Shown here: positions 890 through 64,000 of the stretch, piece after piece | Numbering within the stretch: position 1 is the first letter of the stretch | Layout: the number at the start of each line of letters is the position of its first letter | DNA from: Isurus oxyrinchus | Lineage: Eukaryota | NCBI GenBank assembly: GCA_026770705.1 | Contig: JANJGN010000004.1 | Span: 110,546,001-110,610,000, forward strand | DNA: 64,000 nt | Reading direction: 5' to 3' | Notes under the pieces: model-generated | What the model was told of the DNA's origin: nothing | The model's database searches: none | Seen by the model: only the letters and a program-made list of their open reading frames with translations | Program-made: the position numbers and the translations under genes

Positions 890-30672
<29,783 letters not shown>

Positions 30673-48850: not shown

Positions 48851-49286
48851 CTAATGCCAAGCCTGTAGACAGGGACAGAAAATCAGAGTGAGTCACACCG
48901 CCTTGTCTTAAAGGCTCCCTATAAACCTTGGCCAAGACCCAGAGGTTAATTATCTGTCCTCCCCACCAGAGAAAATGCTCATGACAAAGAGTCCAAACTT
49001 GTAGAAGAGGTTAATAGAGAGAAAAATAAATACGTACTAAAAAAAGAACATTCTAATAATATGTGATAAATGTAGACATGTAAACCGCAGTTTCTCAGAG
49101 TGAAATTGGAACATTTGGTCCAAACATTTTAAAGGTTATTATGGAACAGATATGTGATTATGGAAAAAGAGACATTAACCCAAATGTTCCTGCTGTGTGA
49201 GAATATGTTGAGCAGAGCACACTAGGTTACTCCATCAGGGCCACCCACCTGGTGCCCAAATTCTGGCTGGATTTAAGTTGGAATTA

Positions 49287-49345
49287 TATAGACTTTGCAC
49301 CACAGAAACAGGCCATTCGGCCTAAAGGTCTCTACAGGTGTATTG
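49287..49345 (-). mobile_element. Extreme 3' tail of a CR1-type element, antisense, running directly into the satellite
   Basis: tatagactttgcaccacagaaacaggccattcggcc matches the reverse complement of the CR1 tail at about 34246-34282. Confidence 0.75.
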
Positions 49346-52300
49346 TTGTAGGTCTGTACAGGCATGTTGTAGGTCTGTACAGGCGTGTTGTAGGTCTGTA
49401 CTGGTGTGTTGTTGTAGGTCTGTACAGGTGTGTGGTTGGAGGTCTGTACAGGCGTGTTGTAGGTCCATACTGGTGTGTTATTGCGGGTCTGTACAGGTGT
49501 GTGGTTATAGGTCTGTACAGGTGTGATGTAGGTCTGTACTGGCGTGTTGTTGTAGGTCTGCACAGGTGTGTTGTTATAGGTCTGTACAGGCGTGTTGTAG
49601 GTCGGTATGGTGTGCTGTTGTAGGTCTGTACTGGTGTGTTGTAACAGGTCAGCACAGGTGTGTTGTAGGCCTGTACTGGTGTGTTGTTGTAGGTCTGTAC
49701 AGGTGTGTTGATATAGGTCTGTACAGGGGTGTTGTAGGTCTGTACTGGTGTGTTGTTGTAGGTGTGTACAGTTGTGTTGTTATAGGTCTGTACAGGCGTG
49801 TTGTAGGTCTGTACTGGTGTGTTGTTGTAGGTCTGTACTGTTGTGTTGTTATAGGTCTGTACAGGTGTGTTGTATGTCTGTACTGTTGTGTTGTTGTAGG
49901 TTTATACAGGTGTTCTGTTATATGTCTGAACAGGCATGTTGCAGGTCTGAACTGGTGTGTTGTTGTAGATCTGTACAGGTGTGTTGTTATAAGTCTGAAC
50001 AGGTGTGTTGTAGGTATGTACTGGTGCGTTGTTGAAGGTCTGTACAGGTGTGATGTTATAGGGTCTGTACAGGCATGTTGTAGGTCTTTACTGGTATGTT
50101 GTTGCAGGTCTGTAACATAGAATGTGCAGTTGTGTTGTTATAGGTCAGTACAGGTGTGGTTTTGTAGGTCTGTACTGGTGCCTTGTTGTAGGTCTGTATT
50201 GGTGTCTTTTTGTAAGACTGTACTGATGTGTTGTTGTAGGCCGGTACTGGTAAGTTGCAGGTCTGTACTGGGATGTTGTTGTGCGCCTGCACAGGTGTAT
50301 TGTTGAAGGTCTGTACTGGTGTGTTGTAGGTCTGAGCTGGTGTGTTGTAGTAGGTCGGCACTAATTTGGTGTTCTAGGTCTGTGTTGGTGTATTGTTGGT
50401 CTGTGCCGGTGTGTTGTTGTAGCTCTTTACTGGTATGTTGTAGTTCCGTACAGATTTGTTGTGCATCTGCACTGGTGTGTTGTTGTAGGTCTGTGCTGGT
50501 GTGTTGATGAAGGTCAGTGCTGGTGTGTTGTTGTAGGTCTGAGCAGGTATGTTCTTGTAGGTCTGTGCTGGTGTGCTGTTGTAGGTCTGTGCTGGTGTGT
50601 TGTTGTAGGTCCGTACTGGTGTGCCGTTGTAGGTCTATGCTGGTGTGTTGTTGTAGGGCTGTGCTGATGTGTCGTTGAAGGTTTGTACTGATATATTGTT
50701 GCAGGACTGGGCTGGTATGTTCTTGCAGCTCTGTACTGTTGTGTTGTTGTAGGTCTGTACCGGTATATTATTGTAGGTCTCTGCTGGTGTGTTGTTGTAG
50801 GTCTGTGCTGATGTGTTGTTGTAGGTCTTTGCTGGTGTGTTGCTATGGGTCTGTGCTGGAGCGTTGTTGCAGGTCTGTGCTGGTGTGTTGTTAGAGGTCT
50901 GTACTGCTGTGTTGTTGTAGGCCTGTGCTGGTATGTTCATGCAGGTCTGTGCTGGTGTGTTGTTATAGGTCTGTGCTGGTGTGTTGTTGCAGGTCTGTAC
51001 TGGTGTGTTGTTGGATTGTGCTGCTGTGTTGTTGTAGGTCTGTACTGGTGTGTTGTTGTAGATCGGCATTATTTGTTTATCGAGGTCTGTGCTGGTGTGC
51101 TGTTGGTCTGTGCCGCTGTGTTTTTGTACGTTTTTACTGGTATGTTGTAGGTCTGTACTGGTTTGTTGTGCATCTGCACTGGTGTGATGTTGTAGGTCTG
51201 TGCTGGTGTGTTGATTAAGATCAGTGCTGGTGTGTTGTTGTAGGTCAGTGCTGGTGTGCCGTTCTACGTCTGTGCTGGTTTGCTGTTGTAGGTCTATGCT
51301 GGTGTGTTGTTGTAGGTCTATACTGGTGTGTCATTGTAGGTCTGTGCTGGTGTGTTGTTGAAGGTCTTTGCAGGTGTGTTGTTGAAGGTCTTTGCAGGTG
51401 TGTTGTTGAAGGTCTTTGCTGTTGTGTTGATGTACGTCTGTGCTGGTATGTTGTTGTAGGTCTGTTCTGATGTGTTGTTGTAGGTCTGTGCTGGTGTGTT
51501 GTTCTAGGTCTGTGCTGGTGTGTTGTTGTAGGACTGTGCTGGTGTGTTGCTGAAGGCCTTTGCAGGTGTGTTGTTGTTGGTCTGCGCTGGCGTGTTGTAG
51601 TAGGTCTGTGCTGGTGTGTTGTTGTAGTTCTTTGCAGGTGTGTTGTTGTAATTCTTTGCTGGTGTGTTGTCGTAGGTCTGTGCTGTTGCTTTGTTGTAGG
51701 TCATTGCAGGTGTGTTGTTGTTGGTCTGTGCTGGCATTTTGTTGTAGGCCTTGCTGGTGTTTTGTTTTAGGACTTGCCAGATGTGCTTTTGGAGGTCGTT
51801 GCTGGTGTGTTGTTGTAGGTCTGTGCTGGTGTGTTGTTGCAGGTCTGTACTGGTGTGTTGTTGGATTGTGCTGCTGTGTTGTTGTAGGTCTGTGCTGGTG
51901 TGTTGTTGTAGATCGGCATTATTTGTTTATCGAGGTCTGTGCTGGTGTGCTGTTGGTCTGTGCCGCTGTGTTGTTGTAGGTTTTTACTGGTATGTTGTAC
52001 ATCTGTACTGGTTTGTTGTGCATCTGCACTGGTGTGTTGTTGTAGGTCTGTGCTGGTGTGTTGATTAAGATCAGTGCTGGTGTGTTGTTGTAGGTCAGTG
52101 CTGGTGTGCCATTGTACGTCTGTGCTGGTGTGCTGTTGTAGGTCTGTGCTGGTGTGTTGTTGTAGGTCTATCCTGGTGTGTCATTGTAGGTCTGTGCTGG
52201 TGTGTTGTAGGTCTTTGCAGGTGTGTTGTTGAAAGTCTTTGCAGGTGTGTTGTTGAAGGTCTTTGCTGTTGTGTTGAAGTACGTCTGTGCTGGTATGTTG

Positions 52301-61300: not shown

Positions 61301-64000
61301 ATAGGTCTGTGCTGGTGTGTTGTTGCAGGTCTGTACTGGTGTGTTGTTGGATTGTGCTGCTGTGTTGTTGTAGGTCTGTACTGGTGTGTTGTAGGTCGGT
61401 GCTGATGTGTTGTTGTAGATCGGCATTATTTCTTTTTCGAGGTCTGTGCTGGTGTGTTGTTGGTCTATGCCGCTGTGTTGTTGTAGGTTTTTACAGGTAT
61501 GTTGTACATCTGTACTGGTTTGTTGTGCATCTGCACTGGTGTGTTGTTGTAGGTCTGTGCTGGTGTGTTGATTAAGATCAGTGCTGGTGTGTTGTTGTAG
61601 GTCAGTGCTGGTGTGCCGTTGTACGTCTGTGCTGGTGTGCTGTTGTAGGTCTATCCTGGTGTGTCATTGTAGGTCTGTGCTGGTGTGTTGTAGGTCTTTG
61701 CAGGTGTGTTGTTGAAAGTCTTTGCAGGTGTGTTGTTGAAGGTCTTTGCTGTTGTGTTGATGTACGTCTGTGCTGGTATGTTGTTGTAGGTCTGTTATGA
61801 TGTGTTGTTGTAGGTCCGTGCTAGGGTATTGTTGTAGGTCTGTGCTGGTGTGTTTTTCTAGGTCTGTGCTGGTGTGTTGTTGTAGGACTGTGCTGGTGTG
61901 TTGCTGAAGGTCTTTGCAGGTGTGTTGTTGTTGGTCCGCGCTGGTGCGTTGCAGTAGGTCTGTGCTGGTGTGTTGTTGTAGTTCTTTGCAGGTGTGTTGT
62001 TGTAATTCTTTGCTGGTGTATTGTAGGTCTTTGCAGTTGCGTTGTTGTAGGTCTTTGCAGGTGTGTGGTTGTAGGTCTGCGCTGGTGTGTTGTTGTAGGC
62101 CTGTGCTGGTGTGTAGTAGGTCTGTGCTGGTGTGTTGTAGTAGGTCTTTGCTTTGTCTTGTTGTAGGTCTTTGCTGGTGTCTTGTTGTAGGTCTTTGCTG
62201 GTGTGTTGTTGTAGTTCTTTCCAGGTGTGTTTTTGTATGTCTTTGCAGATGTGTTGTTGTAGATCTGTCCTGGTGTGTTGTAGATCTGTGCTGGTGTGTT
62301 GTTGTAGGTCTGTGCTGGTGTGTTGTTGTAGGTCTGTCCAGGTGTGTTGTAGGTCTGTGCTGGTGTGTTGTTGTAGGTCTTTGCTGGTGTGTTGTTGTAG
62401 GTCGTGGCTGGTGTGTTGTTGTAGGTCTTTACAGGTGTGTTGTTGAAGGTCTTTACTCTTGTGTTGTTGTAGGTCTTTGCAGGTCTGTTGTTGTAGGTCT
62501 GTGCTGGTGTGCTGTTGTAGGTCTTTGATGGTGTGTTGTTGTAGGTATTTGCTGGTGTGTTGCTATGGGACTGTGCTGGAGCGTTGTTTTAGGTCTGTGC
62601 TGGTGTGTTGTTAGAGGTCTGTACTAGTGTGTTGTAGGTCTGTGCTGGCCTGTTGATGTAAGTCTGTGCTGGTGTGTTATAGGTCTGTACTGGTGTGTTG
62701 TTGTAGGTCTGTACTGGTGTGTTGTTGTAAGTCTGTGCTGGTGTGCTGTAATAGGTATGCACAGGCGTTTTGCAAGGTCCGTACTGGTGTGTTGTTGTAG
62801 GTCTGTGCTGGTATGTTGTTGTAGGTCTGTGCTGGTGTGCTGTTGTAGGTCTGTGCGGGTGTGTTGTTGTAGGTCTGTGCTGGTGTGTTGTTGTAATTCT
62901 GTGCCGGTGTGTTGTTGTAGGTCTGGGCTGGTGTGTTGTTGTAGGTCTTTGCAGGTGTGTTGTTGTAGGTCTGTGCTGGTGTGTTGTTGTAGGTCTGTGC
63001 TGGTATGTTGTTGTAGGTCTGTGCTGGTGTGCTGTTGTAGGTCTGTGCGGGTGTGTTGTTGTAGGTCTGTGCTGGTGTGTTGTTGTAATTCTGTGCCGGT
63101 GTGTTGTTGTAGGTCTGGGCTGGTGTGTTGTTGTAGGTCTTTGCAGGTGTGTTGTTGTAGGTCTGTGCTGGTGTGTTGTTGTAGGTCTTTGCTGCTGTGT
63201 TGCTATGGGTCTGTGCTGGAGCGTTGTTGTAGGCCTGTGCTGGTGTGTTGTTAGAGGTCTGTACTGCTGTGTTGTTGTAGGCCTTGCTGGTATGTTCTTG
63301 CAGGTCTGTGCTGGTGTGTTGTTATAGGTCTGTGCTGGTGTGTTGTTGCAGGTCTGTACTGGTGTGTTGTTGGATTGTGCTGCTGTGTTGTTGTAGGTCT
63401 GTACTGGTGTGTTGTAGGTCGGTGCTGGTGTGTTGTTGTAGATCGGCATTATTTCTTTTTCGAGGTCTGTGCTGGTGTGTTGTTGGTCTATGCCGCTGTG
63501 TTGTTGTAGGTTTTTACAGGTATGTTGTACATCTGTACTGGTTTGTTGTGCATCTGCACTGGTGTGTTGTTGTAGGTCTGTGCTGGTGTGTTGATTAAGA
63601 TCAGTGCTGGTGTGTTGTTGTAGGTCAGTGCTGGTGTGCCGTTGTACGTCTGTGCTGGTGTGCTGTTGTAGGTCTATCCTGGTGTGTCATTGTAGGTCTG
63701 TGCTGGTGTGTTGTAGGTCTTTGCAGGTGTGTTGTTGAAAGTCTTTGCAGGTGTGTTGTTGAAGGTCTTTGCTGTTGTGTTGATGTACGTCTGTGCTGGT
63801 ATGTTGTTGTAGGTCTGTTATGATGTGTTGTTGTAGGTCCGTGCTAGGGTATTGTTGTAGGTCTGTGCTGGTGTGTTTTTCTAGGTCTGTGCTGGTGTGT
63901 TGTTGTAGGACTGTGCTGGTGTGTTGCTGAAGGTCTTTGCAGGTGTGTTGTTGTTGGTCCGCGCTGGTGCGTTGCAGTAGGTCTGTGCTGGTGTGTTGTT
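49326..64000. repeat. GT-rich tandem satellite, 24-bp unit GGTGTGTTGTTGTAGGTCTGTGCT with 21-bp variants and higher-order block duplications; runs off the window
   Basis: Continuous periodicity over more than 14.6 kb (about 600+ units by length). Translations are 8-aa and 7-aa repeats such as VCCCRSVL, CVVVGLCW, YNNTPAQT and TTTHQHRP. Confidence 0.98.

Follow-up and report, generated by a model that had tools for sequence, protein, structure and literature searches.

The locus described here raises the question of whether a giant satellite can still sit at its birthplace, inside the retrotransposon copy from which it grew. Our window, the 64,000-nucleotide stretch C4:110,546,001-110,610,000 of a 4.98-Gb assembly, carries from 49326 to its end at 64000 a tandem array of a 24-bp unit, as called by TRF. 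This array directly follows the antisense tail of a CR1-group LINE, as a sequence-only reading of the window had pointed out. That reading spoke of a 14.6-kb satellite; the array and its start are real, whereas 14.6 kb is only the portion that falls in the window. In contiguous genomic DNA the array continues to ~C4:110,723,944 and measures 128.6 kb, nine times longer, with no N among its 5,467 units. Lengths of 24 bp (4,364 units) and 21 bp (676 units) predominate, and the mean identity to the TRF unit is 87%. The array is also confined to one locus. Searches of the 4.98-Gb assembly place every exact monomer (258/258), every exact dimer (5/5) and every degenerate monomer match (633/633) inside it, all on one strand, and these searches find neither an older source array nor any homologous array outside the locus.

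The host of the array is a single LINE copy, 5'-truncated and without RT, that is interrupted in register. Its 3' end (49282..49325, minus strand) aligns to family positions ~22-66 and consists of a short-repeat tail, the 3' arm of a predicted terminal stem and a small hairpin (49311-49322). The first monomer (49326..49349, minus strand) forms the founder junction, with its bases 1-16 corresponding to family positions 67-82 in the 5' arm of the predicted stem, within the 3' UTR. Past the far end of the array the LINE resumes at L022:~3921-4378; this resumed part is itself a dispersed repeat, for which a first look gave 3,846 candidates. When aligned to the family consensus, the left flank covers positions ~22-82 and the right flank ~70-521, which indicates that the element halts and resumes at the same short segment, with the seed on both sides. 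Since interruption and resumption both fall exactly on the segment that is repeated, the array probably grew on the spot from this element. The sequence-only reading had predicted that CR1 would resume beyond the array and had taken the founder junction to be preserved; the resumption is there, in register, and both junctions survive. The junction and the two sibling tails that it quoted are present as written, the latter at ~15981 (plus strand) and ~34258 (minus strand), and these tails are among 10 hairpin-motif matches in the first 49 kb of the window. No target-site duplication longer than 4 bp was found at the host copy and array.

For comparison with the family we used a 555-bp consensus and a profile built from 29 copies, the best 29 of 40 scored, which were chosen only by their far-side body and with the host copy itself excluded. 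The host copy is 80% identical to this consensus, versus a mean of 86.5% for the 29 profile copies, and the family is very abundant, with 462,472 first-look candidates. On the opposite strand, the consensus reads as an open ORF2 C-terminus with a stop near family position 118, and the seed therefore lies in the 3' UTR. In relatives at ~55% identity, this ORF contains RVT_1. From this anatomy and from C-terminal motifs of CR1 elements, we provisionally place the family in the CR1 group. The tail is a short repeat and not poly(A), which argues against Zenon as that group is characterised in PMC13343379. A protein search and a motif search of the supplement of PMC13343379 gave no match that would name the family. 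The predicted 3' terminal stem-loop has z = -2.7, a value reached by 6 of 500 shuffles, and such 3' stem-loops occur in stringent LINEs according to PMC3747384.

How well the monomer itself matches the element depends on the method of comparison. When the monomer is simply aligned to the 555-bp consensus over its full length, the match is weak (154/5000 and 439/5000 shuffles reach the score), as is alignment to the junction interval only (166/20000 and 738/20000), with p at ~0.01-0.09. With the profile, bases 1-16 of the monomer match best at family position 67, on the right strand and with 20.4 bits; shuffled sequences score 10.6 +/- 2.4 bits, and 2 of 1000 dinucleotide shuffles reach 20.4. 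The last 8 of the 24 bases have no simple alignment to the consensus and have drifted. The claim that the monomer is a piece of the CR1 3' UTR is thus supported for bases 1-16, whereas it does not extend simply to the last 8. The sequence-only reading placed the seed beside the terminal hairpin; folding predicts it to be part of the terminal stem rather than merely adjoining it.

The units differ between the edges and the interior of the array. An A at unit position 9, which the resumed element also has, occurs in 93-95% of the first 35 units and 50% of the last 8, and in 12-35% of units inside. The TTAT of the element is restored by an A at unit position 23, seen in 20-35% of units among the first 35, in 25% among the last 8 and in 0-10% inside. 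We considered whether the edges lie nearer to the family consensus than the interior and rejected this, as the opposite is seen: edge units score 10.5-11.9 bits against the family profile (the last unit 11.3) and interior units 13-14, which counts against a simple gradient. The lower edge scores reflect the family's own bases at position 9, mostly G, or A/G decay. Since the interior outscores the edges, the good match of the monomer consensus is owed in part to reversion or to a variant of later spread.

The seed segment has several features of its own. The sense strand is predicted to fold into a long stem-loop, in which the 5' arm would be the monomer core. In the consensus, a 7-of-8 direct repeat at family positions 66 and 85, 19 bp apart, surrounds the seed; five such 7-of-8 repeats occur in the consensus, so this feature is not unique to the seed. 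The direct repeat is eroded in the host copy, and the units measure 21/24 bp versus the 19 bp expected from its spacing. Two other copies of the family carry their own two-copy duplication of the seed segment, L099 and L101, that of L101 being 19 bp. These are 2 of the 6 matches of a duplication pattern search, the other 4 being unrelated TG-rich repeats, and none of the 6 is a further array from the same seed, in a search limited to two-copy cases, whose pattern misses diverged copies. A separate observation is a 12-bp duplication of the seed segment in copy L088. The idea that the seed is an indel hotspot is unsupported, with 0.28 events per copy versus 0.29 in the next interval (30 copies) and 0.04 in the other 29.

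Within the array, an old edge zone is distinct from the interior. The first ~35 units (49326..50105) form a 69-bp three-unit repeat (24+21+24), with an identity of 0.74 at lag 69 versus 0.62 at lag 24, and it is here that the position-9 A is nearly fixed. The interior consists of irregular higher-order blocks with periods of 3.2, 3.3, 4.6, 5.6 and 6.9 kb, multi-kb blocks being present already in the part within the window. Identity between them is 98-100% in the best 2-kb stretches, and several 2-kb blocks that lie 4.6-6.9 kb apart show 100% identity; these blocks are either recent duplications or partly assembly artefacts. Just inside the array from the edge zone, at 50115..50126 (minus strand), lies the only insertion longer than 4 bp among the 5,467 units. 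It is 12 bp long, holds an octamer matching the 3' tail of the family, and is likely, as we infer, the product of a tail-only retroposition. The octamer adjoins a matching TGTACAG-like word.

Taken together, we put a probability of about 0.88 on the reading that the 128.6-kb array arose inside one truncated CR1-group LINE through local duplication of a 3' UTR segment followed by repeated unequal exchange. In this account, a LINE end of ~520 bp would have inserted and decayed, after which slippage or unequal crossover between short repeats would have duplicated ~19-20 bp. Small slips in the GT/GTT tract could then have produced the 21- and 24-bp units. Finally, unequal crossover or gene conversion would have amplified first single units, next three-unit blocks and last blocks of several kb, so that the oldest units remain at the edges. 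The array is probably neutral, heterochromatic sequence bordering a belt rich in satellites. The birth in place proposed from the window alone is supported by the profile match at the site of interruption, by the lack of any array elsewhere and by the in-register resumption.

The history of the array extends to a close relative, organism B. Words from the flanks are present at 52-65% in 15 of the 16 indexed runs of this organism (24 runs are listed overall), and its contigs run across the left junction in X6 and X11 and across the right one in X11. The right-junction contig of X11 differs by 9 substitutions and 11 gap letters over ~620 bases. High-depth monomer contigs are present as well; we do not use their summed depths as copy numbers. 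As both junctions are common to organism B, the array predates the split between the two lineages. A third organism, C, yielded one 54-bp monomer-like contig and no junction (run X14, a small share at depth ~3), which is too thin to conclude from. An unexpanded orthologue was not found, the only relative with good cover, organism B, already carrying the array.

The neighbouring gene encodes a cytoplasmic aconitase (ACO1/IRP1), with Pfam-matched exons at 3660..17536 on the minus strand; its identification as ACO1-like agrees with a score of 108 bits to IRP1 vs 89 to IRP2. The array lies ~32 kb beyond the last Pfam-matched exon, on the 5' side of the gene. Of the 10-kb blocks sampled along C4, 4 of the 10 between 111.5 and 125 Mb and both of those between 196 and 201 Mb consist wholly of tandem repeat, each with a different unit; none does among the other samples (0/19 at 2-110 Mb, 0/9 at 128-190 Mb and 0/11 beside the array). 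The belt at 111.5-125 Mb includes a 43-bp array of >730 kb (C4:113.78 to >114.51 Mb), a 6-like-unit array at C4 ~116 Mb and a 27-bp array of >540 kb (C4 <=124.80-125.345 Mb), all with unrelated units (loci L154, L156, L160, L181 and L193 for these arrays together). The two largest, the 43-bp and 27-bp arrays, are candidate centromeric satellites, and at the one edge examined of each we found no CR1 3' UTR origin. The blocks at 196 and 201 Mb (L139, L140), near the end of the contig, have 33-bp and 25-bp units. At C4 ~190 Mb, L138:1008-1721 holds a small array, 17.5 copies of a 41-bp unit, that is related to the giant 43-bp array at a distance of 76 Mb, possibly as a seed or as a satellite outlier. 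A chromosome fusion was also considered and left no signature in sampling of GC and telomeric repeats, with no TTAGGG dimer in 51 blocks.

It is highly improbable that the array, having originated in place, was driven to its size by a function, whether by analogy with CR1-derived chicken repeats as a chromosome-specific centromere, or as sequence beside one, or in the regulation of ACO1. Such a role would suit the position of the array near the middle of a 203-Mb contig and at the edge of the tandem-repeat belt, its multi-kb higher-order blocks and its retention in organism B. However, the two much larger arrays in the belt are better centromere candidates, and the higher-order blocks are irregular.

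Even less probable is an origin elsewhere, in which a chance homology of 13-16 bp would have let recombination or conversion bring an existing satellite into the LINE copy. The short, weak match of the plain monomer consensus is what chance homology might leave, and the better fit of interior units than of edge units to the family points the same way. Against this stand the absence of any copy outside the array in the 4.98-Gb assembly, the private position-9 A that the edges share with the host copy, and the independent duplication of the same segment in other copies. Least probable of all is that the flanks are two unrelated LINE fragments or a misjoin, with a true array length that differs: the abundance of the family and the 100%-identical 2-kb blocks, of a kind that assembly errors can also produce, speak for it, yet the flanking parts join in register where the repeated segment lies, the array contains no N, the right junction is matched over 623 bases with 0 differences by a short-read contig from run X1, and the organism B contigs bridge both junctions. 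These points bear on the join of the flanks rather than on the exact length.

Growth in place from a CR1 3' UTR has a parallel nearby. A second giant array, of ~91 kb and with a 42/44-bp unit, is one of the six wholly tandem samples and lies 2.3 Mb away at ~C4:112,997,650-113,088,900 (L175:~7640, L165:~8900), and we followed it at both ends and in 6 interior blocks. In sense orientation, it splits in register the 3' UTR of a CR1-type family other than that of the first array; its right flank completes a small hairpin, and the repeated piece includes the 5' arm of a terminal stem. In gapped alignment to a mixed consensus of 29 copies, the unit falls on positions 95-134 with a score of 36 vs 18 +/- 3, reached by 1 and 0 of 2000 shuffles. 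In an ungapped profile test 24 of 300 shuffles reach the score, and the best match of a longer word is off target. One could imagine that giant satellites start preferentially from the 5' arm of the CR1 stem, that two CR1 families would each have given rise to a ~100-kb single-locus array from that arm within 2.3 Mb, and that the belt is a nursery in which each array forms in place from its own seed, perhaps feeding the centromere. We regard this as doubtful. CR1 3' ends make up at least ~1.7% of sampled DNA (65 motif matches in 450 kb, 4 in shuffles), and a CR1 3'-UTR origin was found in 1 of 6 other arrays, 3 of which were followed up, an outcome expected ~10% of the time by chance, so that these counts show no preference for the stem arm. 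If the proposal were true, the belt would show how LINE pieces of 20-45 bp become satellite DNA.

Smaller CR1-derived arrays are common on small contigs, with 51-bp ORF2 units or 43/44-bp hairpin-plus-tail units. With tandem repeats of CR1 origin turning up repeatedly in this genome, such cases are less of a rarity than the sequence-only reading implied. Other copies of the same LINE family contain 51-bp or 41-bp ORF2 arrays (L042:1923-3302, L051:1954-2540, L058:3-1476), and a dispersed 43/44-bp minisatellite consists of the terminal hairpin and tail of another CR1 family (L051:897-1264, L059:2175-2938, and L112 on C37). In addition, L045 and L048 (on C211 and C8, one chromosome-scale and one a small contig) are near-identical 3.4-kb loci, possibly an uncollapsed haplotype or a recent duplication.

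The mechanism proposed here would fit the known direct-repeat model of TE-derived minisatellites. In PMC6947457 and PMC3389668, this model of minisatellite origin is credited to Haber and Louis (1998) and Alu-derived minisatellites to Jurka and Gentles (2006), and PMC3389668 reports the model for 300 human TE-derived repeats. As in those cases, a short segment with flanking direct repeats (5-10 bp in the published examples) would have been duplicated and amplified in place, and host sequence remains on both sides. Unlike them, the present array has 5,467 units and multi-kb blocks, whereas up to ~100 units are given for minisatellites, most human TE-derived repeats having two. Many TE-derived satellites are catalogued in PMC9659126 and PMC6947457, including CR1-derived chicken and L1 3'-derived cetacean repeats. 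The mouse loci Ms6-hm/Hm-2 (in a MaLR LTR) and (GGCAGA)n (in a B1 SINE) are likewise locus-specific arrays grown within a retroelement copy, as listed in PMC9659126 and PMC6947457. They differ from ours in their hosts, which here is a CR1-group 3' UTR with a 24-bp unit. The units of these mouse arrays are 4-6 bp.

Closer in host are the chicken HinfI repeat (Li and Leung 2006) and Cen2/3/4/7/11 (Shang et al. 2010), which PMC9659126 and PMC6947457 present as CR1-derived satellites that include the 3' UTR. There, a large CR1 piece (3' UTR and part of ORF2) sits inside the unit; here the unit is no more than a piece of ~16-20 bp, and the array has its parent copy on either side. The chicken 41-bp unit forms higher-order repeats (PMC9974502), and tandem repeats increase at a putative centromere in a ray (bioRxiv 10.1101/2025.06.08.657570). 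The common cetacean satellite (L1 3' end) and pea PisTR-A (Ogre 3' UTR) were also born from a retrotransposon 3' UTR, according to PMC9659126; these involve other element classes, whereas the present array is still at its birthplace with both junctions. A literature search, with most subscription papers outside its coverage, found no published description of this particular array.

It is well supported that the array is an unusually large and complete case of a known process, the birth of a satellite in place from a transposable element, with a second example nearby. It adds no new mechanism or function. Most satellites no longer sit where they were born, having lost the site or spread beyond it. 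This locus, in contrast, still holds the parent element with both junctions, an old edge of three-unit repeats and young blocks of several kb, and a close relative shares it. Because all these stages are preserved together and shared, the steps from a two-copy duplication to 100 kb of satellite can be traced and dated across related species, and the second array provides a replicate of the process.
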